Translations under genes and position numbers: made by a program
Source: a virus
DNA length: 50,405 nt
Direction: 5' to 3' (one strand)
Virus genome (UHGV): UHGV-0169486
The notes under the pieces: generated by a model
Told to the model about the DNA's origin: nothing
Database searches by the model: none
What the model saw: only the letters and a program-made list of their open reading frames with translations
Shown here: one piece after another, positions 285-50,328 of the stretch
How positions within the stretch are numbered: the stretch's first letter is position 1
How the letters are laid out: each line of letters begins with the position of its first letter

Positions 285-413
285 CCACCTGATAGCGCCT
301 CTGACGCAAGAAAGACACTGCACTCTTATAAGTGGGTTACGCGGTGGGATTTTGCGTTGTAGCGCGTTTTACGGGAAATAAATATACATTCTGTAAACAT
401 GAGGAATAACGTT

Positions 414-1532
414 ATGTCACAAAGAAAGATCAGCGATGAGGAATTAATCGCTGAACATAACAGCGGCCTGACGTATAAACAGATCGCTGAGAAGTACGGC
501 ATGGCAAAACGCAACGTCGAGCGCCTGGGCGCACGGCTGGCGAAACGCGGTTTAATATCCACGCGCCGCGCGCCGGGTTTTGGTGTCAATGGTGAATCAT
601 TGCTCGTTGATAAAGATGGCAATGTAATCATGCGCTGGATTAAAACGGCCCGTGACCGTGAGGAAATGGAAAGGCTAATGCAGGCAGCTTGTGACGCATT
701 TACGGAAGAAATGCCGCGCGAGGAAGCCGTGCCAGTGCCGGAAATTGATTTTCAGAAAAGCCTGGCCCTTTATCCGGTATTCGATCTGCATATCGGGGCG
801 CTTGCGCATAAAGCTGAATGCGGAGAAAGCTACGACACCGGGATCGCTGAACGCGTGTTAAATGACTTCTTTGACTACGCTGTAGGCGCTGCACCAACGT
901 CTGAAAAAGCTGTATTGCTTCTCGGCGGTGATGTGCTTCACACGGACGGGCTATTACCAGTGACGCCATCAAGTAATCACGTCTTAGATTGCGATTCACG
1001 CTACGCAAAACTTGTTTATGTGGCGATCCGGTCGGTCCGGCGTGCGGTGGGGAAAATGTTGTTAAACCATAAGGACGTCGAGATCCAGGTGTTATCCGGC
1101 AATCACGATCAGTCGGGGATGATTTGGCTACGTGCGGCGCTGGCGGCTTTTTACGAAGATGAACCGCGCGTAACGGTTGATGTGTCCCCTGCTATCGTCC
1201 ACCACACACAATACGGAAAAACATTCCTTGCTTACCACCACGGACACACCATCAAAAAACCAGAAACCTTACTTGCTGCCTGTGTTTCTGACTGGCGGGA
1301 GGATTTCGGTAAATCGTCGTCAGTTTACGCTCATTGCGGACACTGGCATCACCAGCGGCTGATTGAATCATCGTTAGGCGTTGTCGAGTATCACGGAACG
1401 TTAGCTGGCAAAGATGCTTACTCGACGAATGGCGGCTGGCGTTCACGGCGGCTGGCGGCGGTGATTATTTACAGCCCGGCTCATGGAGAAATTGGGCGCT
1501 TTGTTTATTACCCTGAATATTCCATTTTGTAA
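414..1532 (+). CDS. HTH domain fused to calcineurin-like metallophosphoesterase
   Basis: Motifs DLHIG, GGDVLHTDG, GNHD, HHGH, GHWHH in canonical order; N-terminal HTH LTYKQIAEKYGMAKRNVERL; ATG 414 has GAGGAA RBS (track start 399 lacks one). Confidence 0.75.
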   Translation: MSQRKISDEELIAEHNSGLTYKQIAEKYGMAKRNVERLGARLAKRGLISTRRAPGFGVNGESLLVDKDGNVIMRWIKTARDREEMERLMQAACDAFTEEMPREEAVPVPEIDFQKSLALYPVFDLHIGALAHKAECGESYDTGIAERVLNDFFDYAVGAAPTSEKAVLLLGGDVLHTDGLLPVTPSSNHVLDCDSRYAKLVYVAIRSVRRAVGKMLLNHKDVEIQVLSGNHDQSGMIWLRAALAAFYEDEPRVTVDVSPAIVHHTQYGKTFLAYHHGHTIKKPETLLAACVSDWREDFGKSSSVYAHCGHWHHQRLIESSLGVVEYHGTLAGKDAYSTNGGWRSRRLAAVIIYSPAHGEIGRFVYYPEYSIL

Positions 1533-1550
1533 ACATGAGGTAATGCCATA

Positions 1551-2972
1551 ATGATAACTGACCAAGTAAACTCATTGCGGCAGGAGCGCGAAGCGGCTGT
1601 TATAGGTGGCCTCCTGTTAGGCGGGCTTACTCCTAACGCGCAAGATGTTCTTGCTACACTCGATCCTGATGTATTCACTATTCCTCTGTACAGGCGCGCG
1701 TTCGAAATCATCAGGGCGCAAGCCAGAAACAGAAATCTTATCGACGCGTTATTGGTTGGTGATGAAATCGGTAACGAAAATTTCATACCGCTAATGCAAA
1801 CGGCGCGATCGTGTCCTTCTGCTGCCAACCTGAAAGGGTACGCGCAGCTACTACAGGAAGAACACCAGCGGCGGCAAATGCTGGAGCTAATGGAAGACGT
1901 TCGCTACAAGCTGGAAACGGGGACGCTTGAAGTTGTCAAAGAGACGATGAAAGATTTTGATTCCCGGTATTCAAAATTAAAGGTAACAAAAGATCAGATT
2001 ATCCCGGTGCTGTTGCGCGATGCTGTCCAGGAATACACGGAAGTGCTAAGTAAACGCATGGAGTGTGGCGTGAACTCTGACAACATCAAAACAGGGATTG
2101 ACCCACTCGACGAAATGTTAGGCGGCATTAACGCTACTGATCTGGTGCTTATCGCCGGACGCCCGGGGTCTGGTAAATCGGCGTTGGCGTTGGCAATTGC
2201 CCGCGCGGCGGCTGGACGCCAATACCCTGGCGGAGAAGGTCAGCGGGTCGGCGTTTTGCTGTTCACGCTTGAAATGTCGCTCGATCAGATGACTGAACGA
2301 GCTATCGCTGGCGCTGGGAATTTATCAACGGATTGCCTACGTAATCCGGTAAAACTGGATGACGAAGGATGGGCGCACGTTGCCCGGGGGATGAGCGCCC
2401 TTGCCGATCTCGATGTGTGGATTGTTGACGCATCGCAGTTAACGGTTGAGGAAATACGCGCCACCGTCGAACGGATGAAACAGGACCATCCTAATCTTGG
2501 AATGGTGATGATTGACTACATCGGGTTAATGAAACTGGCTAAGGCCGAACGTCATGATCTCGCCGTAGGGCAATTGTCGTGGTCATTGAAAATGATGGCG
2601 AAAGAGTTGCGCGTGCCAGTGGCGGCGCTGGCGCAATTATCCCGCCGCGTTGAAGAACGACCGAACAAGCGCCCGAACAATTCTGATCTGCGTGATTCCG
2701 GTAATCTTGAACAAGACGCAGACCGGATCATCATGGTCTACCGCGACGGCTACTACAACGAACAATCAGTTGCCCGCGAATACATGGAGATCATCGTTTC
2801 AAAAAACCGTTACGGGAAAACGGGGACTGTTTACCAGCGGTTTGACGATAACGGCAACATCATTCCATGCAACCAGGCTCGCGCGGCGTCCGCCTGCATC
2901 CAGTCAATGCAACAACGTCCGGCAGCAAGCCGATTCTCCACACGAAATAACCAGAATAACGCATCCTTTTAA
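1551..2972 (+). CDS. DnaB-family replicative helicase
   Basis: Walker A GRPGSGKS, DnaB-like N-terminal domain, RecA-like C-terminal domain; GAGG RBS. Confidence 0.85.
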   Translation: MITDQVNSLRQEREAAVIGGLLLGGLTPNAQDVLATLDPDVFTIPLYRRAFEIIRAQARNRNLIDALLVGDEIGNENFIPLMQTARSCPSAANLKGYAQLLQEEHQRRQMLELMEDVRYKLETGTLEVVKETMKDFDSRYSKLKVTKDQIIPVLLRDAVQEYTEVLSKRMECGVNSDNIKTGIDPLDEMLGGINATDLVLIAGRPGSGKSALALAIARAAAGRQYPGGEGQRVGVLLFTLEMSLDQMTERAIAGAGNLSTDCLRNPVKLDDEGWAHVARGMSALADLDVWIVDASQLTVEEIRATVERMKQDHPNLGMVMIDYIGLMKLAKAERHDLAVGQLSWSLKMMAKELRVPVAALAQLSRRVEERPNKRPNNSDLRDSGNLEQDADRIIMVYRDGYYNEQSVAREYMEIIVSKNRYGKTGTVYQRFDDNGNIIPCNQARAASACIQSMQQRPAASRFSTRNNQNNASF

Positions 2973-4638: not shown

Positions 4639-5292
4639 ATGAATAAACTAAAAGCAATTGGCGTGATTAGCCATCGCACTAACCCTGAATGTTACCCATC
4701 GTTTGAGGTAACAACATGCCGCACAGAATATAATTTTGGATCATACTATTTATTGGGTGTCCGCGCTGACACTGGCGGCACTTATTCGGTTATGGCTGCA
4801 AGCTGGAAATTTGATAAATACGCTAATTTATCGAATAAGGATGATGACGGCATGAATAAAGAAAGTGAAATCATTGATGAATTAATCGAAGATGAACGCC
4901 ATGATTGCGAAACACAACAAGAAAAAACAGAATGGAAGCCAGGAGAAAAGCCGCCGTGCGGCGTGTGGCTTGATTGTTATTATCCTGATGGCTATTACAT
5001 TGGGATTGTAATGTTTAAGTTTATCGGTGATAAATACGGGGTATACACAGAAAAAGGCAGTATACAGAAAGAAAATGCTATTGAATGGGGTTTTTATAAT
5101 TATTATTTATACGTTGATCCGAAAGAAAAAGCACTGGCGCAAATTGCGTTTGCTCTGGCTACGAAGGTTATTGGTGAGGATGCGGCAGGAGAAATAAATT
5201 TCAATCGTGATAATGATTATTCGCGTGATTATCGCAATATGGCGCAAGCTATTATTGACGGATGTATCGGACACGTTGAATACACGGAATAA
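4639..5292 (+). CDS. hypothetical protein, AT-rich accessory gene
   Basis: ORF track (4624..5292); ATG 4639 with GAGGA RBS; AT-rich codon usage by eye; Cys-containing, no recognised domain. Confidence 0.55.
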   Translation: MNKLKAIGVISHRTNPECYPSFEVTTCRTEYNFGSYYLLGVRADTGGTYSVMAASWKFDKYANLSNKDDDGMNKESEIIDELIEDERHDCETQQEKTEWKPGEKPPCGVWLDCYYPDGYYIGIVMFKFIGDKYGVYTEKGSIQKENAIEWGFYNYYLYVDPKEKALAQIAFALATKVIGEDAAGEINFNRDNDYSRDYRNMAQAIIDGCIGHVEYTE

Positions 5293-5426
5293 TGGATAAA
5301 ACAGGGACAATCCTTCTTAGTCGCCCTGCCATCTGCCGGATGCTTGGTGGAATTAGCAGGGGAACATTTTATTTATGGCGTAAAAAATGGGAACGGAACG
5401 GAACTCCGTTCCCCTGTCTGGAATGA
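5292..5426 (+). CDS. AlpA-like small HTH protein (44 aa)
   Basis: Own translation MDKTGTILLSRPAICRMLGGISRGTFYLWRKKWERNGTPFPCLE; GISRGTFY..W....FP pattern typical of AlpA/excisionase-like HTH; TAATG coupling to upstream gene. Confidence 0.4.
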   Translation: MDKTGTILLSRPAICRMLGGISRGTFYLWRKKWERNGTPFPCLE

Positions 5427-5511
5427 TTAACGACATGAATAATCATTTGTAAAACAGCATGTTATGTTATCTTTGCTTTGGATTTTTGATATTTGGTCAC
5501 TATTTGGTACA

Positions 5512-5541
5512 CAAAAAGAAACGAGGAGTTAGCCTCGTTTC
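5512..5541 (-). terminator. rho-independent terminator at end of minus-strand late block
   Basis: Stem GAAACGAGG/CCTCGTTTC, 6-nt loop, T-run on minus strand; immediately downstream of 5585..5851 gene. Confidence 0.6.
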
Positions 5542-5584
5542 GCGGCGATGTCTTCAACATCACCATGCTGTTGCTGTCGCACCA

Positions 5585-5851
5585 TCAAGCCCATGCGCGG
5601 ACGCCTGGATCTAGAACGATGAATTTTTCCAGCGGCGACAAATCAACATCGTCGCCAGTAATGCGCATGTTGACGTAATAGCCCTTTTTCTCAATCAGTA
5701 CAGGTGTCTCACTTTCTGGATCATCGAATACAGGCACAAAACCAATTTCATCAACAAATACGGTTGACCAGTTGGCGTCCAGCCAGCCGCTCTTAATCAC
5801 AATATCGTTGTATTGCTGTTTATCAGTAAATTGCAAGCTAACATCTTTCAT
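5585..5851 (-). CDS. hypothetical protein downstream of tail fiber (possible fiber accessory/assembly protein)
   Basis: ORF track (5585..5869); ATG 5851 with AAGGTGG RBS. Confidence 0.5.
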   Translation of the reverse strand: MKDVSLQFTDKQQYNDIVIKSGWLDANWSTVFVDEIGFVPVFDDPESETPVLIEKKGYYVNMRITGDDVDLSPLEKFIVLDPGVRAWA

Positions 5852-5861
5852 ATTCACCACC

Positions 5862-7625
5862 TTAAACAATCTCGCTCAATTGCGCATCGGTCAATGCTTT
5901 GTGCCATACCCTGAAATTTCTAATGTGTCCAAAAAGATGTCGCACCCCCGACGTGGCTTGCCCGCCAAAACGGATTGACGTAGCACTGACTGCGAATACA
6001 TTGCCGCTTGGTTTGGTTGTATATTTACCGTTGCACACGGCATCGACCGAAAGATTCTGCTGCGCGCGAACACCAGCAATAAAGTGACGGCTTTCGGGCT
6101 GAATTAACGGTTGCACCATTCCTACGTTAGCCGCAATCTCACCCGTGCTAACAAATCCAAGCGATAAGTAATTATCATTACTCCTATTACCTCCAACATC
6201 AAAAATTCGAGGCGATTGGTTTGGCGGCGTACCCCAGTTTACGTGCACCTCGACCAGTGATGTGAACGGTAGGGATGATAGATTGTTTTCTGCGAAGATA
6301 TTGACCATATCGCTGGCGCGCGTTGTCGGTAATGTGCCGGAGATGATATATGAGGACGCCCCTATTCCTAGCTCAACTTGCGGTGTGGTTAGTTCGATAT
6401 AATCCCCGGCAGCATAACTACTCACTGGCGAGATCTGGAACTGTGCGTTAACCAATGCCGTGGTGGATTGCAGCATCACCACCGCGCGATTCCATCCGGT
6501 GACCTCGTCTCTCTCAACTTCTACCGTGATACGTTTCGCAGCGCCACCAGTTTTAGACACTGACAAGTCGCTAAGTTTAATGTATGCGTCGCCGGAGAAA
6601 GTCATACTACTCTGATCCGCACCCTCTGCAAAACGCACGCGCAGACGTACATCCTTGTCGGACCGGAATCGGCATGATGCCGTTACATATTTCTCGTCAC
6701 CAGACGTATCAAGACTGTTAGCCGCAGTTACGGAAGCCATATTAAACGCCGTATTTTTTCCTACACCATCGGCCACGATCACGCACTTACCGTACAGGAA
6801 GCCGAAGGCATCCGTGTTTGCAGTTGTCGTAACTGACGGCGAGCACCCCCAGCTTGATGGAGTGTTACCGTTTATAATGTAGTTAGTTCTGGTCCCTTCA
6901 ACCAGCAGCCCTTCTCGTTCAAAACGTGGTTCGTCAATGGCTGCTTCCTTAAACACACCGGATTTGTTTATATAAGTTGCTTTTGACGCGCGTTTAAATT
7001 TAACGATCTTGTCACCTGGTACTGTTGTTTCTTCTTCACCAATAACAATCTTTTTATAGGAAGGGGAAAACCCGGTAATCATGTCGAGAGAGTCGTTAAA
7101 CGGTATCCATACGTCCGGCAGCGGCTGCAAAACATACGCGTAAGGCTGCGCTGTCTGATTGGCGTATTCGCGGGCCTCGTCTCTGTATGTCTTAGCTGAA
7201 TCGGCGGCGCTTGTCGCTGTTGTTGCAGCGTTGGTTGCAGTGGTAGCTGATTGTGACGCTAATTTTGATGCTGAAATCACATCTTTGTTGTCGCTGAAAA
7301 ATTCGACGGCGTCAGCTATTTCTGATTCCTTGCCTTGATAGTAACGCAGTGTTTCGGCGACATCCTGAGCAAGACCATCTACAGAGATCGAGTCTGAAAG
7401 CAGGATGCTAAATTTAGTGCCAGCCGGAATAGCAGGACTTGCCGAGGGGGTTACTGATAAACTTGTTGCGCTTTTTACCTCTGTAATTGAAAAAATCTGC
7501 ACCGGATCGCTAATGGCAATAAGAGTGCAACCAACCCTGATCAGAGATAATGCGGCGTTGAATTCAGTCCCTGTCCCGGTAACTGTTTTTCCGCTAACGG
7601 CTATCGTGCCTGTTGTGTAAATCAT
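5862..7625 (-). CDS. side tail fiber / receptor-binding protein
   Basis: ORF track (5862..7679); ATG 7625 with AAGGAG RBS lies downstream of a TATAAT promoter; Thr/Gly-rich N-terminus, Ala/Thr/Ser-rich central segment, C-terminal lectin-like region. Confidence 0.8.
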   Translation of the reverse strand: MIYTTGTIAVSGKTVTGTGTEFNAALSLIRVGCTLIAISDPVQIFSITEVKSATSLSVTPSASPAIPAGTKFSILLSDSISVDGLAQDVAETLRYYQGKESEIADAVEFFSDNKDVISASKLASQSATTATNAATTATSAADSAKTYRDEAREYANQTAQPYAYVLQPLPDVWIPFNDSLDMITGFSPSYKKIVIGEEETTVPGDKIVKFKRASKATYINKSGVFKEAAIDEPRFEREGLLVEGTRTNYIINGNTPSSWGCSPSVTTTANTDAFGFLYGKCVIVADGVGKNTAFNMASVTAANSLDTSGDEKYVTASCRFRSDKDVRLRVRFAEGADQSSMTFSGDAYIKLSDLSVSKTGGAAKRITVEVERDEVTGWNRAVVMLQSTTALVNAQFQISPVSSYAAGDYIELTTPQVELGIGASSYIISGTLPTTRASDMVNIFAENNLSSLPFTSLVEVHVNWGTPPNQSPRIFDVGGNRSNDNYLSLGFVSTGEIAANVGMVQPLIQPESRHFIAGVRAQQNLSVDAVCNGKYTTKPSGNVFAVSATSIRFGGQATSGVRHLFGHIRNFRVWHKALTDAQLSEIV

Positions 7626-7655
7626 CGCAATGACTCCTTTGTTATTAGTTATAAT

Positions 7656-7684
7656 ATTATACCAACTGTATTTGCTCACACAAA
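7656..7684 (-). promoter_or_regulatory. sigma70-like promoter for side tail fiber gene
   Basis: Perfect -10 TATAAT with TTTGTG 17 nt upstream, read on minus strand. Confidence 0.4.
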
Positions 7685-7732
7685 ATATGCATATTATTAT
7701 TTCTATAAGATATTAAATGTTGGGGGAATATC

Positions 7733-13488: not shown

Positions 13489-14237
13489 TTATCAGATCTC
13501 CATATTGAATGCGTTTGTCGAACATAAGCAGGCCGCATTTGCTCGCGGCGGCTTAATAGTCCGGCATGGTCATGATGCAAAACCGTGTTATCACCCAGGT
13601 AAATCATTGCGTGGCATGGATCCGCACCTTTAAACGGCTGTCTGATGATTACGTCACCTGGCTGGATGCTTTGCGCATCAACCTGATAAAACCCGTTTTG
13701 CGGCAAGTTTTTTAAATACAGGTTTTCACCGCGCAGCCACCAGCCATCAAGGCGCTCGAAGTCCGGCAGGTCTACACCACAAAGGTGATAGGCGTCACGG
13801 AAAAGCGCGTAGCAGTCAGTTACCCCGTGCACAAACTTACGGCCTAGCAGGTGCGCCACCGGGCGAAATTTTCTTATCTTGCCGCCGGAATATAAAAACC
13901 ACGGCAGACCGGAAATAACCTGCTGTTGTCGATCCCGCGCAGACAATACCGAAATATCATCAACGTGGGAGTGGAAAACGGCGGTTATAACGCCCAATTC
14001 GTCCGCTTTGATGTAATCGTCCGGCGAAATCTTGAAGCTGTTGTGAGGCGTTTCAGACACGTTAGCGCACGGGTAAAAATACTCGTTATCTATTACAAGT
14101 CCGCAAACTTCCTCAAACGGATGCGCGGCGGCATAACGCGACATTTTGTCTTCCATCCCCATGATTAACCTACCTTGCTGGAACCAGGGAAACAGGAGAT
14201 CGGCAGTGCTGCCGGGCGCGGGAAACGCAAACGGCAA
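13431..14237 (-). CDS. K: tail assembly protein K (MPN/JAMM plus NlpC/P60 domains)
   Basis: JAMM motif HSHVDDISVLSARD and NlpC/P60 Cys in TDCYAL; position between L and I. Confidence 0.85.
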   Translation of the reverse strand: MPFAFPAPGSTADLLFPWFQQGRLIMGMEDKMSRYAAAHPFEEVCGLVIDNEYFYPCANVSETPHNSFKISPDDYIKADELGVITAVFHSHVDDISVLSARDRQQQVISGLPWFLYSGGKIRKFRPVAHLLGRKFVHGVTDCYALFRDAYHLCGVDLPDFERLDGWWLRGENLYLKNLPQNGFYQVDAQSIQPGDVIIRQPFKGADPCHAMIYLGDNTVLHHDHAGLLSRREQMRPAYVRQTHSIWRSDKCSNLDLRAIFEDITAKCV

Positions 14238-14869
14238 CCGCTAAGGCGGTGACTGCACTTGTCTAACGTTGGGTCACTTGTTGGTGAATCTTTATCCGTT
14301 GCGACCGGGCCGCCAGAATACATGCACCCGTCGCCTCTGTATTGCCACTGGCAAACGTCAGCAAGGATGGTGCGCCCAGGAATAACAGCCTTATCTGCAT
14401 CAATTGGCGTTGACAGTTCATATTGCACCTGATCCGCTGTTTCTTCGCTCATGGACTCCACGACGTAAAAAGACACAGCTTCAATAGATGGATCTGCGTC
14501 GGGGTTTCCGTTAGGGAAGTTAACAGCGTCAAGATATTTCACCTCCACCTGGCGGCGCGTAACCTTCATGCCTCTTAGGTCGTTGAAATCGTTATTCATC
14601 CCCGTAATTAGCCCGCCGATGTTGGCTACAACCATTTGAGGGCGCGAATAAACGCCTTCGTTTTTCATTTCGAAGCCAGTAGCCTCGATGGGGTAACTGT
14701 TGTAAGCCGCCCCCTTCCAGATAACCGGGCCGTAATAGCCGTTTGCGCCGGAATGGAAGCGGATAACCTCGCCACCCAGGGGCGTAAGGTCCAGTTCGAA
14801 CAAGTCAATTACCGCGCCGACTCCGGCATCGACGGAATCAATAATCATCTCTGTAGGTATATTGCGCAT
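14165..14869 (-). CDS. L: minor tail protein L
   Basis: Recalled similarity to lambda L (YLDAVNFPNGN, CQWQYRGDGC, DKCSHRLSGC). Confidence 0.85.
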   Translation of the reverse strand: MRNIPTEMIIDSVDAGVGAVIDLFELDLTPLGGEVIRFHSGANGYYGPVIWKGAAYNSYPIEATGFEMKNEGVYSRPQMVVANIGGLITGMNNDFNDLRGMKVTRRQVEVKYLDAVNFPNGNPDADPSIEAVSFYVVESMSEETADQVQYELSTPIDADKAVIPGRTILADVCQWQYRGDGCMYSGGPVATDKDSPTSDPTLDKCSHRLSGCRLRFPRPAALPISCFPGSSKVG

Positions 14870-14923
14870 TTTCTCACCTTGTCATTTTGTGATCTGCATC
14901 ACGCAAGATCATGCCAAAATGGA

Positions 14924-14952
14924 TTGATCCATATTTTTACAATATGTATATT
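14924..14952 (+). promoter_or_regulatory. sigma70-like promoter for plus-strand gene island A
   Basis: TTGATC - 17 nt - TATATT; overlaps conserved 14-mer TTTACAATATGTAT. Confidence 0.4.
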
Positions 14953-15216
14953 TTACTCAAACGAAGGGGAGTCAACAAAATGGCACAACTTTGAACAAGG
15001 TAGAACACTATGAGACCCGCAAAATACGCAGAGAAAGTTTTTGTTGAAGTGAAAGGCGACATGAAAAAATTTATGGATGTTCTTATCAAAGAGATGGGAA
15101 AACCGTTCCATATAGCCGAACGTCAGTATTACGCTTGCAAGGCTAATAGCTACAACAGATACGCATGACAATAAACACAAAGGTAACACCATGCAAAATA
15201 TCGTCTCGATGTATGG

Positions 15217-15543
15217 ATGGCAGGAAGTAAGGATTGGGAAGGTTACGGCTTGTATGATAGTCACGAAATGGCGATCGAGGAAGGTGAAAAACTTGTTCGA
15301 TTCTTCGGACGCGCCAGGGAATTTAAAATCATTCCAGTACAAATAGCGGATAAGGTGGAAGATATGAACCCGAAAGATATTAATGTTAACTTCAATGTTA
15401 ATTTTGCCAACTCTATGGATCAGGCTTGTCCTAGTGAAATACACGTAAAAGGTTTCCCGGCAGATGATCCGCAAGCAAAACGTGAATACGAAAAAGCGGC
15501 AAAAGATTTCTGTATCGACAACCTGGGAGCGTTCGGCAAATAA
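15217..15543 (+). CDS. hypothetical acidic protein (island A)
   Basis: ORF track; protein-like composition unlike the overlapping 224-aa antisense ORF; weak RBS. Confidence 0.4.
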   Translation: MAGSKDWEGYGLYDSHEMAIEEGEKLVRFFGRAREFKIIPVQIADKVEDMNPKDINVNFNVNFANSMDQACPSEIHVKGFPADDPQAKREYEKAAKDFCIDNLGAFGK

Positions 15544-15552
15544 GGTGGCAAT

Positions 15553-15801
15553 ATGACGCGGCGCAATCACGGTGACTATGTGTACACGTTGAAACAGGCC
15601 GCCCGCCTTATCGGTTATCATGAGCACGAATTTATTGATTTGCTGATTGAGCGCGGGGTTTTGTACCAGGTCTGTTTAACGCTGTACCCAAAAGCGAAAT
15701 ACCTACAGGAAAAGTTATTCATCATCATGACGGATGAAAACCAGGTAAACCATTCATTCGTCACTGATAAGGGATTGACATATTTGAAGGGGGCGTTATG
15801 A
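15553..15801 (+). CDS. hypothetical HTH-like small protein (island A)
   Basis: ORF track; AAGGTGG RBS; segment YTLKQAARLIGYHEHEFIDLLIERGVLY resembles a DNA-binding HTH. Confidence 0.5.
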   Translation: MTRRNHGDYVYTLKQAARLIGYHEHEFIDLLIERGVLYQVCLTLYPKAKYLQEKLFIIMTDENQVNHSFVTDKGLTYLKGAL

Positions 15802-15870: not shown

Positions 15871-15900
15871 ACTATAAACCCCGCTTCGCGCGGGGTCGTG
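15871..15900. terminator. hairpin terminator between island A and the convergent minus-strand gene
   Basis: CCCCGC-ttcgc-GCGGGG hairpin with flanking T-rich runs on both strands. Confidence 0.45.
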
Positions 15901-16100: not shown

Positions 16101-16454
16101 TTAATTGATAACTTGTTCAAACGTTGCATTCAGAGTGCATACCGGGCCGTCTTTCGCCATGCTCCACTTTCGGCATACAAAAAGCCTTTTCACTCCGTCT
16201 GTAGATGGCGTCCAGTAAAACGCCTCGACCGCGCAACGTGCTCTTAAAAATGCGTCAACCTGGAGCGCCACGTTTCCGGCGTCACCGCATCCGGCGCTCG
16301 TACCTTTAAAGACCAGCGTATAGCTGTCAAGTAGTGGATTAATCCCTTTTGTCTGGCGCTGTTCATAGCCATCGCCCAGCTTGATAACGGACACGTTAGG
16401 CTCACTGTTTACGCTGTAGCTTCTCTGTGGTGTCCATCTGAACACTTCCGGCAT
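16101..16454 (-). CDS. M: minor tail protein M
   Basis: Recalled similarity to lambda M (FRW..., GDGY.QR, FEQV.N C-terminus); GGAGG RBS. Confidence 0.8.
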   Translation of the reverse strand: MPEVFRWTPQRSYSVNSEPNVSVIKLGDGYEQRQTKGINPLLDSYTLVFKGTSAGCGDAGNVALQVDAFLRARCAVEAFYWTPSTDGVKRLFVCRKWSMAKDGPVCTLNATFEQVIN

Positions 16455-16624
16455 ACCCCCTCCTGTAAGTTACATTTTGTATATATCTTTACGCACTTCT
16501 ACGCGAAAAATGAGATATTCGACACAAGAATTATAGCCAATTTACAATATGTATTCACACACGAAGCAACAAGCTGTATACAGGAAGCAAGAAGAAAAGC
16601 GGTACCAGCAAGTGAGGCCCAAAA

Positions 16625-16780
16625 ATGAGTAGCTATGTAGTAGTGATGCTAAACAACGCATTCGAGCAAGTGGAAGTAGCAATTGTTAAGGGTTTCGACG
16701 ACGCATTCAAATACGGTCAATTCATGATGAACGCGAAGAATGATGAATACCGGGATTTCTTCCTGAGGGCGCTTAACTAA
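16625..16780 (+). CDS. hypothetical small protein (51 aa, island B)
   Basis: Own translation MSSYVVVMLNNAFEQVEVAIVKGFDDAFKYGQFMMNAKNDEYRDFFLRALN; GTGAGG RBS. Confidence 0.3.
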   Translation: MSSYVVVMLNNAFEQVEVAIVKGFDDAFKYGQFMMNAKNDEYRDFFLRALN

Positions 16781-16790
16781 GGACGATGGG

Positions 16791-17051
16791 GTGAGTTATG
16801 AAACTGGTAACTATCGAAAAAACCTGAAAGCACAAAAGAATGCACAGGAACGGGTAATCAAGAAAGGCAAGAAGTTGCTTAACGCCTTCCTGAAAAAAGA
16901 AGCCCGCCCCAAAAAATTACGTGATGGTTATGGCTTTAAATTCGATATCAATCCTGACTGGCGGCTGTTCAGTGAAGATTTGAATATTTGGTTAATTATC
17001 GATCACCTGGAATACAACTGTCATTGCGGAGTGAAAGGCGCTCATAAGTGA
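16791..17051 (+). CDS. hypothetical basic protein (island B)
   Basis: ORF track; GTG start with AGGA RBS; Lys-rich. Confidence 0.4.
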   Translation: MSYETGNYRKNLKAQKNAQERVIKKGKKLLNAFLKKEARPKKLRDGYGFKFDINPDWRLFSEDLNIWLIIDHLEYNCHCGVKGAHK

Positions 17052-17160
17052 GGTGGAATATGGAGGAGGAGAAATATACCTAGCGGGAGATCTGGAACAT
17101 CTGGTTAGTGATGTTCGGCAGGGGTTACGTCGCACGTAACGGAAGATTATAGGAGGAAAA

Positions 17161-17346
17161 ATGATTATTGACGAAACAGAGTTATGTTACGGAGTTAGGT
17201 TAGATCTTGATGAGGATGGTCGGCTGTGGATAACCGAACTTATGGGGACTGAAACCATAGTAATTGAAAAATCGCAGGCAACACAACTTATCGCCGGGCT
17301 GCAAAAATTTGTAGATGGCACATTTGAGAACGATCGGGAGGATTAA
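17161..17346 (+). CDS. hypothetical acidic small protein (island B)
   Basis: ORF track; strong AGGAGG RBS. Confidence 0.5.
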   Translation: MIIDETELCYGVRLDLDEDGRLWITELMGTETIVIEKSQATQLIAGLQKFVDGTFENDRED

Positions 17347-17348
17347 CG

Positions 17349-17636
17349 ATGGATTTAACCGTTATTGGTCACGCACTGGCTGCGGCGACTATACAGGTTG
17401 TTATCGGCCTGCTTACTGGTGATTATCTCACTGGCGGCCTGATTGGATGTACATTCTTTTTTGCGCGGGAACACACACAGGCTGAATATCGTTACATAGC
17501 GGAATTTTGCGGAGGGAAACGAGAAAGAATGCCGTGGTATGGTGGTTTTTTACCAAAAGCATGGAATATGGCTAGCGTTTGCGACTTCGCCGCGCCCGCA
17601 TTCCTGTGCTGTTTAATTTATATCCTTACCATGTAA
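17349..17636 (+). CDS. hypothetical membrane protein (island B)
   Basis: ORF track; GGGAGGA RBS; hydrophobic N- and C-terminal segments; followed by terminator. Confidence 0.5.
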   Translation: MDLTVIGHALAAATIQVVIGLLTGDYLTGGLIGCTFFFAREHTQAEYRYIAEFCGGKRERMPWYGGFLPKAWNMASVCDFAAPAFLCCLIYILTM

Positions 17637-17640
17637 AATA

Positions 17641-17661
17641 AAGGCCGCTTATAGCGGCCTT
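17641..17661. terminator. bidirectional rho-independent terminator between tape measure gene and island B
   Basis: Hairpin AAGGCCGCT-tat-AGCGGCCTT with flanking T-rich runs on both strands. Confidence 0.65.
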
Positions 17662-20014: not shown

Positions 20015-20164
20015 GATTTAACCTCATGCAAATGTGATCTATGCATCTATTTTATACAAAATGTCTTTACTTTAACGATACCGTTTTGTATAAATGATGT
20101 AGGGAAAGATAGAAGAGATGCAGGAAGGACGGATGTCCCGGAGGAAGTGAAAGAGGATAAGGAA

Positions 20165-20248
20165 ATGAGAAACGTAAACTACCGTCCCAACGAATATGAA
20201 CGCTATGCGGACCTTATCGAAGAAATGTTAAAAGCACTTAAAAAATAA
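20165..20248 (+). CDS. possible micro-ORF (27 aa)
   Basis: Own translation MRNVNYRPNEYERYADLIEEMLKALKK; GAGGATAAGGAA RBS. Confidence 0.25.
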   Translation: MRNVNYRPNEYERYADLIEEMLKALKK

Positions 20249-20315
20249 ACAATATGCGTGTATAACTAAGTTAAATGAAGCATTTAGCAAATCAGAATAA
20301 TTACGGGGGTTAATT

Positions 20316-20729
20316 ATGAAACGGTTAGCAAAAATGGTACTTGCTGTGATTGCTGCACTGGCATTTAACGCGAACGCTAACGAGGCCATAAACATTAACT
20401 GTGAAGAAGTGGCAAACCATGTAGCCGCATATCACGACATGATCAAAAAAGAACCAGCCGCACCCAAAATTCTTTTTAAGGTAATTGATAAAATTTTTGA
20501 AGGTAAACCAGTTTATGCTCGTTGGTTTAATTATGGCCTTGTAATCGAGGCTGCTGCAAGCGTAGGCTTTGAAAACAACAGCGAAATAAAAAACAGGATA
20601 GCTAACGAGTGTAAAGCAAATAAAATTGCTTTCGCTGAAAGAATTTTTAATAAAGGCGGCGCTGGCGCAAAAAATCACGCAATTGTCAATTTAGGTAACG
20701 GTTTTATTGATATTGTTAGAATCAAATAA
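20316..20729 (+). CDS. secreted/periplasmic hypothetical protein with signal peptide (opposite-strand accessory gene)
   Basis: N-terminal signal peptide MKRLAKMVLAVIAALAFNANA; GGGGG RBS; AT-rich; own terminator. Confidence 0.6.
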   Translation: MKRLAKMVLAVIAALAFNANANEAININCEEVANHVAAYHDMIKKEPAAPKILFKVIDKIFEGKPVYARWFNYGLVIEAAASVGFENNSEIKNRIANECKANKIAFAERIFNKGGAGAKNHAIVNLGNGFIDIVRIK

Positions 20730-20736
20730 GACAAAC

Positions 20737-20758
20737 GCCCGGATCTACCGGGCTTTTT
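20737..20758 (+). terminator. rho-independent terminator after secreted-protein gene
   Basis: GCCCGG-atcta-CCGGGC followed by TTTTT. Confidence 0.6.
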
Positions 20759-41579: not shown

Positions 41580-41676
41580 TTTTGTTTGCTTGAAGTATAC
41601 AAAACGGATGCGCCAGAACAAGGCGAAAAGCGCCATTATGTGATGCATATCACGCTATGACGCCATTTTGTAAACT

Positions 41677-43971: not shown

Positions 43972-44069
43972 CTTGTTTTCTCCGCGCCGTAAACCTTTCG
44001 ATTTCTTCTTACAAAACGGATATGCGATCACAGCACAAAATGTATATTTATGTGATCGCGATCACCCTG

Positions 44070-47454: not shown

Positions 47455-47484
47455 AATGTCACCTTTGAAAGTTTACATTTTGTA

Positions 47485-47775: not shown

Positions 47776-47831
47776 AATCTGATCTCCTTATATCCCATGA
47801 TGATACTTAATAAAAATCATCTTCATTAATT

Positions 47832-47869
47832 GCCGCACTTCCAGCGGCTGACCAGATTGTTAAAGAGCA
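47832..47869 (-). promoter_or_regulatory. nutL-like site (boxA TGCTCTTTAACAA plus boxB-like hairpin)
   Basis: boxA matches recalled rrn/lambda boxA consensus; hairpin GCCGC-TGGAAGT-GCGGC; between PL-like promoter and N-like gene. Confidence 0.6.
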
Positions 47870-47911
47870 AGTAACCTTCTTTCCCCTGCCTTGCTACCTC
47901 CTTTGCCTCGA

Positions 47912-47940
47912 AATATACGCCCCGTGATACACCGAGTCAA
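47912..47940 (-). promoter_or_regulatory. PL-like sigma70 promoter
   Basis: TTGACT - 17 nt - TATATT on minus strand; TATCACG operator-like half-site within spacer. Confidence 0.65.
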
Positions 47941-48029
47941 TCCATTTTGTATACTTTTTTAAATATTTTATATGTCATTGATATTTAAATAATAAAACAC
48001 GTTTTATGTTTACGTTTTGGTGTTTTCAG

Positions 48030-48058
48030 GGCAAAGAAAAGCCGCCATTCGGCGGCTA
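48030..48058 (-). terminator. rho-independent terminator downstream of repressor gene
   Basis: GCCGCC-attc-GGCGGC hairpin with T-run on minus strand. Confidence 0.55.
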
Positions 48059-48063
48059 ATTTT

Positions 48064-48675
48064 TTATGGCAGGTTTACGATCTTCGCGTCCACCACCACG
48101 CCTATGATTTTCGATTCAGGATTCATGGGGATTGGTGGATACAGCGGGTTAAGCGAACGTAAAAGCCTTTGACCTCCATCAATAATCAACTGTTTAAACG
48201 TCGGTATTTGCCCTTCCTCAAGCTGTGCTATAACCAGCTTTCCATCGATAGCTGGCGCGTGTGGGTCAACAAGTATCATCGTCCCGGCAGGGATGCTCAA
48301 CCCCTGCGGCGCGTTCATTGATTCACCTTTAGCAACCAGCCAGTAACTATCATCTGAACAAATAACGCTAGTCGTAACGTGTGGTAATGTTGATCGCCTT
48401 GTATCTTCCATATTGTTTACTGTGTCCTTCCAGTCAACAACCGGGTAACTGCCTAAATCACGCTGCGGCGCTCCCGGTAACGTGTTAGAAACAGAATCAT
48501 CAATGACCATTCCATCATGGGTAACAGTGAACTGCCGACGACCAAGTGCCCGCATAATCCGCGCAATATCTTCAAGATTTGGCTCGCGGCGACCGTTAAG
48601 CCAGTGTGACAGGCCGCCTTTAGTTATCCCCATGAGATCCGCGAGTGAATCCTGGCTCATGCCTTGCGCTCGCAT
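48064..48675 (-). CDS. CI-like repressor (HTH plus LexA/S24 peptidase domain); 5' end possibly frameshifted
   Basis: HTH SQDSLADLMGITKGGLSHWLNG; S24 region with GESM and Lys; annotated ATG lacks RBS and truncates helix 1. Confidence 0.7.
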   Translation of the reverse strand: MRAQGMSQDSLADLMGITKGGLSHWLNGRREPNLEDIARIMRALGRRQFTVTHDGMVIDDSVSNTLPGAPQRDLGSYPVVDWKDTVNNMEDTRRSTLPHVTTSVICSDDSYWLVAKGESMNAPQGLSIPAGTMILVDPHAPAIDGKLVIAQLEEGQIPTFKQLIIDGGQRLLRSLNPLYPPIPMNPESKIIGVVVDAKIVNLP

Positions 48676-48874
48676 GAGCTGCTTTGCTAAGTCATACCAT
48701 TTGTTTTCATGTCGCTACCCTATAACCTCAAAAGTTTGATACAAGTCACAAAATGTATTTTTCAAAGCCTTGATTTAAAAACTCCATTCTGTAAACTTGC
48801 AGACAAGGTAAGGCCATAGTTGCAAAGACGCAAAAAAAAAGATAACGGAATAGCACAAAAAGGCGCATACCTCA

Positions 48875-48908
48875 TGCTCTTTAAAAATCCGGTGTCGCTG
48901 CGAAGCGA
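48875..48908 (+). promoter_or_regulatory. nutR-like site (boxA TGCTCTTTAAAAA plus hairpin TCGCT-GCGA-AGCGA)
   Basis: boxA-like sequence and tetraloop hairpin in PR leader, upstream of first rightward gene. Confidence 0.5.
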
Positions 48909-49017
48909 AAAACAAATATCACGCAACGGCGGGATCTGTTGAGCGGTCAGTCACTGCTATCTAATGCTAATGGGATGCCCGCCCGCGCGTTCACTCTAAC
49001 CATAGGAGAAAAACAAG

Positions 49018-49272
49018 ATGAGTATGCACATGATGAATGAAGCATGGAACGTAAAACTTAACAGCCCGATCCAAAAACTTGTCTTAATTGCGTTTGCAGA
49101 AAAGGCAGACAACAAAGGCCGCGCACATGCTTCACGCGAAGAGATCGCAAAAGTGTGCGAACTGCCACTGCATACTACTGTTGACGCATTAAATTCATTG
49201 ATCCGCAAAGGATTCATTAAACGCGCTGACGAATACGGCGACATTTATGACATTGCATTGCCGGAGGAATGA
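49018..49272 (+). CDS. winged-helix DNA-binding protein, first gene of rightward operon
   Basis: ORF track; AGGAG RBS; winged-helix-like segment. Confidence 0.6.
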   Translation: MSMHMMNEAWNVKLNSPIQKLVLIAFAEKADNKGRAHASREEIAKVCELPLHTTVDALNSLIRKGFIKRADEYGDIYDIALPEE

Positions 49273-49275
49273 TCT

Positions 49276-50328
49276 ATGAAATGGTTTAAGCATGATAGCG
49301 ATGCAAACCGCGATGAAAAACTTCAAAACGTTTTATTAGATTATGGCCTGGAAGGGTACGGGCTTTATTGGTATTGCCTAGAACTAATAACTTATGACGT
49401 AGATCAGCACAATCTAACTTTTGACCTACGACATGACGCAAGAATAATTGCGCGAAACGTCGGATCTACTGAAAAACGTATAGAAGAAATGATGAAATAC
49501 TTCATCGAAATTGGTTTGTTTGAATGTTCTCAAGGCCACATAACTTGTTTAAAGTTATTGAAAAGGCTGGACCAATCAATGACTTCTAAAAGCGCTTACA
49601 GGGCCGCCATAAACACAGCGAAGGAGCAATTAACATTAGAAAAGTTAATCAATCCAACACAAAAAGGTCATGACCGGGTCATGACCAGGTCAGGAAAGGG
49701 TCATGAATTAGAATTAGAAGTAGAAAAAGAAAGAGAAAAAGATATATACACTTCGTGTATTGTCGAAAATGAACAAAAAATGGTCAATCAGGATGGCGTA
49801 AACGAAGCGGCATTGCGTTGCCTGGCCTTCTACAACGACAAGGCAGGATGCAAATGTCGTGATGCTAAGCCATTCGTAGAACTACTGACAGAAACAAAAA
49901 CACGTAAAGCGTATACGGAGGATGAGATCACATTAGTGATTGAGTGGGCTTTAACGCAATGGCGTAGCCGTGGTGGAACACCTAAGCCTATCAACATTTG
50001 CCGGGTAACTAAGTTTGATGGGTATTTGGCTGATGCTGAACAATGGCGCAAGCTATCAGCTACTGTAAACGCCGCCGACGTAGTGGAAGCATTTAACAGC
50101 ACGTTTGATGGCCTGTTACCACCTGCTGAACTTGATCGGGATCTGGAACGTAAAATTTATGCGTTCTCTGACTACCTGAAAGATAAAAGCGTCAAAGGCT
50201 TTATCAGCTACTTCGAAGCGTTCAAAAATACGGCCTCAGATTTTTACTTCGGCAATGGCTTCACTGCGACACTAGATTTCTTACTAAAACCAAAAACGCT
50301 ACGCGACACCCGCGCTGGCGCTCTTTGA
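49276..50328 (+). CDS. replication initiator / replisome organizer
   Basis: N-terminal WFKHD...GLEGYGLYWYCLEL motif typical of phage replisome-organizer N-domain; iterons plus AT-rich tract inside gene. Confidence 0.75.
   Translation: MKWFKHDSDANRDEKLQNVLLDYGLEGYGLYWYCLELITYDVDQHNLTFDLRHDARIIARNVGSTEKRIEEMMKYFIEIGLFECSQGHITCLKLLKRLDQSMTSKSAYRAAINTAKEQLTLEKLINPTQKGHDRVMTRSGKGHELELEVEKEREKDIYTSCIVENEQKMVNQDGVNEAALRCLAFYNDKAGCKCRDAKPFVELLTETKTRKAYTEDEITLVIEWALTQWRSRGGTPKPINICRVTKFDGYLADAEQWRKLSATVNAADVVEAFNSTFDGLLPPAELDRDLERKIYAFSDYLKDKSVKGFISYFEAFKNTASDFYFGNGFTATLDFLLKPKTLRDTRAGAL
49666..49755 (+). other. putative origin of replication (iterons plus AT-rich region)
   Basis: Four GGTCATGA-type repeats at exact 11-bp spacing (49666, 49677, 49688, 49699) followed by AT-rich tract, inside initiator gene. 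Confidence 0.6.

Follow-up and report, generated by a model that had tools for sequence, protein, structure and literature searches.

The moron concept reportedly originates from Juhala et al. in 2000. The closest described analogue of the locus studied here is the ant moron in the late operon of P22 and epsilon34, and in the P22-like phages a moron occurs at one place only in the morphogenetic cluster (PMC2629481). Here, we analysed the UHGV virus genome UHGV-0169486 over its full 50,405 nucleotides (nt; the window), where an exact 14-mer, TTTACAATATGTAT, precedes two of three plus-strand gene islands that break successive junctions of the minus-strand tail genes. Our preferred reading, with a probability of about 0.6, is that the islands are three antisense morons with sigma-70-type promoters designed like the early promoter PR of this mEp021-group phage, and that the 14-mer is a copy of a promoter box word and not a unit in itself.

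Similarity places the window among the temperate coliphages of the mEp021 (mEpimmI) group. The region shows 84-87% identity with Escherichia phage MagusPhagus and with mEp phages (mEp021, mEp010, mEp044 and others), and the orientation of the window is the reverse of the mEp021 record. The mEpimmI phages are Nus-dependent non-lambdoid temperate coliphages, reportedly as common as the lambdoid phages among human gut isolates (PMC11893012). The same description of the group makes no mention of island promoters or of start sites in these regions.

The islands agree at the sequence level with the moron as defined in PMC2629481, since they lie in an operon, vary between relatives and are apparently expressed independently. 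They resemble the ant moron in being gene groups inserted in a morphogenetic operon, with variable content, deviating composition and a predicted promoter and terminator of their own, and one island holds an antirepressor-type (KilAC) domain protein. They differ from it in that three separate cassettes, each antisense to the late operon, sit in as many consecutive tail-gene junctions, and in that their predicted promoter modules are paralogous to one another and to PR. Island promoters and morons are ordinary, textbook phage biology, and no new principle is required. What results is a concrete map of predicted promoters for the accessory cassettes of the mEpimmI phages, whose regulatory sites outside the nut sites are undescribed.

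Occurrence and conservation of the word

The two exact copies of the 14-mer are on the plus strand and each lies in a divergent gap. Copy 1 is between the start of the minus-strand gene 14165..14869 and the plus-strand open reading frame (ORF) 15010..15168, 74 nt before its ATG at 15010. For copy 2, the neighbours are the start of the minus-strand gene 16101..16454 and the ORF 16625..16780, whose ATG at 16625 comes 84 nt further on. This placement upstream of both islands is as an earlier reading of the letters alone, the sequence-only reading, had described it. With up to two mismatches, the 14-mer has 4 matches in the window against 0.71 expected.

An exact 14-mer repeat is not rare in the window, because 25 distinct exact direct repeats of at least 14 nt exist in it, with 51 14-mer pairs against 7.6 in Markov shuffles. 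It is only the match in genomic context that sets this repeat apart. By a rough estimate, two specified gaps of ~150 nt would share a 14-mer by chance with a probability of the order of 10^-3 to 10^-4. Taken alone, the 14-mer is weak evidence.

We compared the sites in ~30 group members around gene M from IMG/VR, 12 further loci around island 3, two E. coli prophages and the complete mEp021 genome. None of the ~34 relative loci has the 14-mer in two copies, and a search of IMG/VR gave no exact match for the island-2 version of the window, TTTACAATATGTATTCACA. Compared with the nearest relatives (loci L003 and L097), the window has one G-to-T change, at 16552, and it is this change that lengthens an 11-nt match to 14 nt. 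By this comparison, the full 14-nt identity arose only in this phage, through one or a few substitutions, and the 14-mer is an accidental extension of the 11-nt core TTTACAAWATG, the conserved shared element.

The sequence-only reading had proposed a motif search across the genome and related phages, and there the core holds its position at both sites in about 30 relatives. At island 1, TTTTTACAATATGTATATT is almost invariant in the relatives and TTTTTACAATATG is nearly invariant in 24 distinct ones. At island 2, nearly all read TTTACAAAATGGCTTCACA and a few TTTACAATATGG(C/A)TTCACA. The word TACAAWATG has 9 matches in the window against 1.35 expected, most of them intergenic. The 50 lambdoid loci with an M protein ~65% identical (~300 kb) contain neither TACAAWATG nor the composite promoter described below, and in this comparison the word is specific to the mEp021-like group.

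An ACGAAG had been noted at a short distance after each copy and is present at 14960 and 16561. It is not conserved, and its island-2 instance falls in the most variable stretch of the relatives' alignment.

A predicted promoter design shared by the islands and PR

In the conserved layout, an A-rich ACAAAATGG-like box, (T)ACAAAATGG, is followed after 1-2 nt by a -35 hexamer, and a 17-nt spacer separates this hexamer from a TATAxx -10 (Table 1). Written as a regular expression, this design matches the window 5 times, whereas 300 shuffles give a mean of 0.01 matches and a maximum of 1. The boxes start at 14914, 16544 and 20056 for the three tail islands, at 47950 on the minus strand for PR and at 5965. 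In the complete mEp021 genome, it has exactly 4 matches, PR and the three syntenic tail islands. Hence, the predicted design is not specific to accessory genes, as it is also found at an early promoter.

Table 1. Features of the window, with promoters, starts and terminators as predicted. Boxes before a hyphen are 9-mers ending in ATG, and the two bases after it make up the 1-2-nt gap before the -35.
Feature	Position	Strand	Composition
P_isl1, predicted sigma-70-type	14914..14952	+	box CCAAAATGG 14914-14922 (window GCCAAAATG-GA, relatives ACCAAAATG-GA); -35 TTGATC 14924-14929; spacer 17; -10 TATATT 14947-14952; predicted start ~14959
P_isl2, predicted	16544..16582	+	box ACAATATGT, relatives ACAAAATGG (window TACAATATG-TA, relatives TACAAAATG-GC); -35 TTCACA 16554-16559; spacer 17; -10 TATACA/TATATA, TATACA at 16577-16582; predicted start ~16589
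P_isl3, predicted	20055..20094	+	box TACAAAATG 20055-20063 (window TACAAAATG-TC, relatives TACAAAATG-GC); -35 TTTACT/TTCACT, TTTACT at 20066-20071; spacer 17; -10 TATAAA 20089-20094; predicted start ~20101
PR, early promoter (mEp021 nomenclature)	47912..47951	-	box TACAAAATG 47951-47943 (TACAAAATG-GA, relatives same); -35 TTGACT 47940-47935; spacer 17; -10 TATATT 47917-47912
14-mer copy 1, TTTACAATATGTAT	14936..14949	+	3' part of P_isl1 spacer and first 3 nt of its -10
14-mer copy 2	16541..16554	+	box position of P_isl2 and first base of its -35; relatives read TTTACAAAATGGCT
Third word copy, AACAAAATGG	14974..14983	+	3' edge of conserved island-1 promoter module
Candidate divergent promoter toward L	14950..14978	-	TTGTTG-17-TAAAAT (relatives TTGTTA-18-TAAAAT or TACAAT)
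Candidate divergent promoter toward M	16530..16558	-	GTGAAT-17-TATAAT (group GTGAA(G/T)); copy 2 in its spacer
CRP-like dyad, TGTGATCTGCATCACG	14888..14903		between L start and P_isl1; 9/10 consensus positions
Other CRP-like dyads	41639-41654, 44051-44066, 48735-48750		
CRP-like half-dyad	20033-20048		
Tail islands		+ (tail genes -)	at DUF6246/tape-measure, tape-measure/M and M/L junctions
Island 1 cargo	15010..15801	+	52-aa (amino-acid) ORF, 108-aa ORF (phrog_38567), 82-aa KilAC-domain protein (PF03374)
Terminator-like hairpin closing island 1	15878..15896	+	
Island 2 cargo	16625..17636	+	51-aa ORF, 86-aa ParE-like toxin, 61-aa and 95-aa ORFs
Terminator-like hairpin, island 2/tape-measure gene	17641..17661		two-way
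Island 3 cargo	20164..20729	+	conserved 28-codon ORF 20164-20250; 137-aa ORF 20316-20729
Terminator-like hairpin closing island 3	20737..20753		two-way

The two copies of the 14-mer hold non-equivalent positions in the predicted promoters and hence are not one functional unit. At island 2, the word copy would itself be the in-register box. At island 1, the copy comprises the last 11 nt of the spacer and the TAT of the -10 hexamer, so it would fill the 3′ spacer and supply part of the -10, while the in-register box lies 25 nt further upstream; it would also overlap the predicted start of a divergent promoter toward L. The idea of a shared promoter or regulator-binding site, put forward in the sequence-only reading, therefore holds as one promoter design at the islands, and fails as to the 14-mer, whose copies have different promoter roles. 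One design makes a common mode of control for the islands plausible.

The same reading had counted boxes upstream of the opposite-strand genes at 20251 and 7685 as relatives of the 14-mer, and both fall outside the conserved design. The one at about 20249-20251 follows the stop codon of a small ORF within island 3, and mEp021-type relatives do not have it; the one at 7685 contains an additional AT (ACAAAATATG) and is not part of a promoter design in register. The actual third member is the TACAAAATG at 20055. If the island-1 14-mer were the box of a second plus-strand promoter, its -35 would be TATTTT and its -10 TCAACA, which is too poor.

Conservation follows the predicted promoter elements. 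At island 1, all sequences agree in the -35 TTGAT[C/A] and the -10 TATATT, and 30 of 31 have a spacer of 17 nt. At island 2, all 22 distinct versions have a 17-nt spacer, and the first ~10 nt vary freely between the conserved TTCACA and TATAYA. At island 3, the spacer is 17 nt in 6 of 6 distinct versions. The -35 hexamers, also conserved in the relatives, match TTGACA at 4/6 (TTGATC), 5/6 (TTCACA), 4/6 (TTTACT) and 5/6 (TTGACT) positions, and the TATATT of P_isl1 and PR matches TATAAT at 5/6 with both A-11 and T-7 present.

The scores go in the same direction. PR, which sits between the repressor terminator and nutR1 in a gene order taken partly from PMC11893012, has the top matrix score of the whole window, 13.0. 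P_isl1 scores 9/12 in the consensus scan and 11.2 by the matrix, ranking 8 in the window, with a mean of 11.3 over 24 distinct sequences, and the mean of P_isl2 over the relatives is 8.6. Averaged over the relatives, the hexamer pairs of the design are the best plus-strand candidates at all three island sites.

The proximal subsite of the upstream (UP) element reportedly has the consensus AAAAAARNR at -46 to -38, for example in rrnB P1 (Estrem et al. 1999). The word, at about -46 to -37 and adjoining the -35, would be at the place where the RNA polymerase alpha subunit contacts this subsite, and from this position it most likely raises promoter strength. ACAAAATGG at -45 to -37 matches 7 of 8 comparable positions of this consensus, in the same register in 4 promoters. 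The likeness to promoters of the rrnB P1 type extends to an A-tract 9-mer directly before the -35, the 17-nt spacer and recognizable hexamers. The word differs from a UP element in being more specific than an A-tract, with a conserved C at position 3 and TGG at the 3′ end, and in recurring in other registers, before -10s and before start codons.

In the preferred reading, each island would thus be a moron in which a few small accessory genes stand between a host sigma-70-type promoter and a terminator, both belonging to the island itself. The host sigma-70 RNA polymerase would transcribe the islands from autonomous, UP-assisted promoters. The Q-modified polymerase of the late operon is assumed to pass the island terminators on the other strand, as a Q protein is present and Q proteins generally behave so.

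Several points weigh against this reading. Everything on promoter activity in this phage group is prediction, and our promoter matrix uses hexamer frequencies from the literature and is not a curated model. The -10s of P_isl2 (TATACA/TATATA) and P_isl3 (TATAAA) keep A-11 and are without the highly conserved T-7; because of this, the consensus scan omitted both and gave TCGACA-18-TACAAT at island 2. In the mEp021-type relatives, the island-1 box is displaced by 1 nt and reads CCAAAACGG. The fifth match of the design, CCAAAACGGA-TTGACG-16-TACATT at 5965-6002 on the plus strand, falls within the minus-strand gene 5862..7679, in its 3′ part; no plus-strand gene is obvious downstream of the match, and it has no evident role.

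Moreover, 13 nt of the island-1 spacer are near-invariant, which is unexpected for a plain sigma-70 promoter. The word also stands directly before -10s, as ACAATATG before TATATT, ACAAGATG before TATATA and ACATTTTG before TATAAA; L, M and a small early ORF each have a copy ~20 nt ahead of their start codon. These extra positions hint at a function other than, or beyond, a UP element.

Candidate divergent promoters, dyads and rival readings

Two candidate reasons for the near-invariant island-1 spacer are a divergent minus-strand promoter and an operator. The candidate promoter toward L scores 9.0 in the window, with a mean of 9.5 and a minimum of 9.0 over 24 sequences; it would start at ~14943, inside copy 1, and has a -10 that overlaps the -10 of P_isl1. 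The candidate toward M scores 10.4 in the window and a mean of 10.6 over 27 sequences, is the best-scoring candidate of the island-2 gap and has a consensus -10, TATAAT, conserved in all relatives.

The island-1 pair resembles the bidirectional promoters with overlapping -10s of Warman et al. 2021, described as cited in PMC10268837 with starts 7-25 base pairs (bp) apart, most commonly 18 bp, and with -7T and -11A reciprocally paired. The predicted -10s TATATT (14947-52) and TAAAAT (14955-50) overlap, and the predicted starts are ~16 bp apart. The pair differs in having an offset of 2 bp and in a predicted -35 of its own for each arm.

The operator would serve a dedicated regulator, of the phage or the host, that binds the dyad TACA-N3-TGTA or the word ACAAAATG and co-regulates the islands together with other sites of the genome. 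It would occlude the spacer and -10 at island 1 and the -35 at island 2. This reading has a low probability. The dyad TACAWWWTGTA has 4 exact matches (14938, 16471, 16543 and 47474) against 0.18 expected, a number seen in no shuffle, and all of them are in intergenic DNA. The one in copy 1, TACA-ATA-TGTA, has both halves conserved, in a spacer segment that is almost the same in all 24 distinct relatives, while the four 5′-terminal bases of that spacer vary, and the one at 47474 is conserved in mEp021.

However, the right half at 16543 is missing in every relative, which reads TGGC and not TGTA, and the dyad at 16471 decays in the mEp021-type relatives (TACATATTGCA, TACATATCGAA). The sites also differ in where they fall with respect to the promoters. 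Repeat analysis of the immunity region (47780-49020) gave only the nut boxA-like pair and the word itself, and no operator shared by PR, PL and the islands. The 434-type operator ACAA-N6-TTGT, considered for the half-site ACAATAT, is at chance level, with 1 match against 1.29 expected and outside the regulatory regions. No candidate binding protein was singled out, and PMC11893012 does not describe the operators of the repressor Rep021.

Island 3 of the relatives (L001, L084-L095) contains a perfect 13-bp inverted repeat, TTTATACAAAATG-N19-CATTTTGTATAAA, around the -35 and spacer of P_isl3, and this also favours an operator. The window matches it at 12 of 13 positions (20052-20064 and 20082-20094), one arm being the box and the other containing the -10. 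The consensus sequences of IHF, Fis, DnaA, TyrR, LexA and FNR do not fit the word, in a comparison made by eye of the consensus and not against a database. No Rfam family matches anywhere in the window at gathering thresholds.

A broader form of the same idea is as doubtful as the operator. In this form, (T)ACAAAATG(G/T) would not be a generic UP element but would be recognized by a specific factor, either a host regulator or a core protein of the phage, that joins PR and the three cassettes in one regulon. The overlapping divergent promoters might also re-start or throttle the transcription of L, M and the tape-measure gene from within the late operon, and nutritional control through the CRP-like sites would be possible. 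The invariant island-1 spacer, the dyads, the extra word positions and the island-3 inverted repeat keep it alive.

Class I CRP-dependent promoters such as lac P1 have TGTGA-N6-TCACA centred at -61.5. The dyad TGTGATCTGCATCACG, a neighbour of the 14-mer and not part of it, matches 9 of 10 positions upstream of P_isl1, with its centre at about -63.5 from the predicted start and not at -61.5; the half-dyad of island 3 is centred at about -60.5. The pattern TGTGA-N6-TCAC(G/A/C) has 6 matches in the window against 1.1 expected. In 31 relatives, the half-sites at 14888 are invariant and the central 4-5 bases take at least 11 forms, a signature of a dimer binding site that could be for host CRP or a phage protein. 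The dyad at 41639 is part of a longer hairpin, annotated as a terminator in the mEp021 record.

Island 1 also contains three GATC sites within 40 bp (14891, 14906 and 14926), one in the -35 TTGATC and one in the CRP-like dyad. Methylation-sensitive promoter activity is conceivable, and the group encodes several DNA methyltransferases.

It is improbable that the TACAAT within the 14-mer is the -10 of both island promoters, with the same role for both copies as the sequence-only reading implied. At island 2, TCGACA-18-TACAAT (16519-16548) does score 10/12 in the consensus scan and 10.4 by the matrix, above TTCACA-17-TATACA in the window. Against this, island 1 is without a -35-like hexamer 16-18 nt upstream (CAAAAT, CCAAAA, AAAATG), the island-2 relatives read TACAAA, TACGAA or TTCAAA and lose T-7 or A-11, the upstream hexamer drifts (TCATCA, TCAGTA, TAATCA), and the pair is not among the top candidates averaged over conservation.

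More improbable still is that the copies match by chance, as AT-rich intergenic sequences may, and share no function. The abundance of 14-nt repeats, the duplication of the full 14-mer in this phage only and the one substitution behind its last bases speak for chance. The 11-nt core kept at both sites across the group, the excess of TACAAWATG and of the design, and the syntenic recurrence in mEp021 speak against it. Conservation largely refutes chance for the core, and it stands only for the last three bases.

The least probable is that the word copies are short homology patches conserved for cassette exchange and not for transcription: copies do flank the promoter module and the homology break with its varied sequences comes directly after one of them, but any conserved regulatory module should show such a break at its edge, with no special mechanism needed, 8-10 nt are too short for efficient homologous recombination, and at islands 2 and 3 the cargo junctions do not coincide with a copy of the word.

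Cargo of the islands and other sites

The three islands break the tail-gene junctions at the same places in MagusPhagus and mEp021. Lambdoid relatives with an M ~65% identical have neither of the two islands at M, and in them (e.g. L033, L034 and L061) an apparently uninterrupted upstream coding sequence reaches the M start with no promoter module, as for islands inserted between genes that are neighbours in relatives. The content is variable and the composition deviates, the GC content of the islands being 0.37-0.45 against ~0.5 in the flanking tail genes, with a flip in the sign of the GC skew. The promoters and terminators of the islands are predicted from sequence and conservation.

The predicted promoter modules are stable fixtures of the mEpimmI group and the cargo behind them is exchanged. 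With almost every relative, the homology of the window breaks off sharply at 14981-14988, just past AACAAAATGG, and at least 6 different cargo sequences start directly after 14983 across the relatives. The first island-1 gene of the window is shared only with a few E. coli prophages, e.g. STEC308 and Ecol_244, and some relatives have a different first gene behind the same island-2 promoter. This argues against acquisition of promoter and genes as a set, which had been suggested for the accessory genes and is contradicted by the group-wide modules.

The ParE-like toxin pair and the KilAC-domain protein sit behind such constant promoter "docks" with swapped cargo, which makes the docks a place to look for lysogen-expressed genes. 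Island 2 starts (16625-17051, plus strand) with the 51-aa ORF, of phrog_29810, followed by the ParE-like toxin PF24732, possibly a toxin-antitoxin pair as moron cargo. Other island products include several PHROG families of unknown function. In island 3, the 28-codon ORF (MRNVNYRPNEYERYADLIEEMLKALKK) has a Shine-Dalgarno sequence, is the first gene behind P_isl3 and keeps its frame across a 3-nt indel in the relatives; it is unannotated in mEp021, and the MagusPhagus record has a minus-strand ORF there.

The same vocabulary, ATATACATTTTGTATAAG and GATCACAAAATGGTAGAAT, occurs in a divergent gap between the lipoprotein gp81 and tail-tip gp82 genes of the mEp021 record (52895-53028; ~6896-7029 of locus L098). 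In GATCACAAAATGGTAGAAT, TGG-TAGAAT reads as an extended -10 promoter.

The minus-strand genes of the window encode, by family, a Q-type antiterminator (PF03589), the tape-measure protein (PF20155), M (PF05939) and L (PF05100), and a CI-like repressor gene is at 48064..48675. No integrase-sized ORF was found at the place of the mEp021 int (window 5292-5862). The gene order wraps around the window ends, from a replication-protein homologue (49276..50328) to a gp11-like gene and DnaB (399..2972). These two observations suggest an assembly without int that is circularly permuted or circular. A 19-nt inverted pair (47851-47869 and 48875-48893) holds a boxA-like TGCTCTTTAA with short hairpins after each side, and it fits the nutR1 and nutL sites reported for mEp021.

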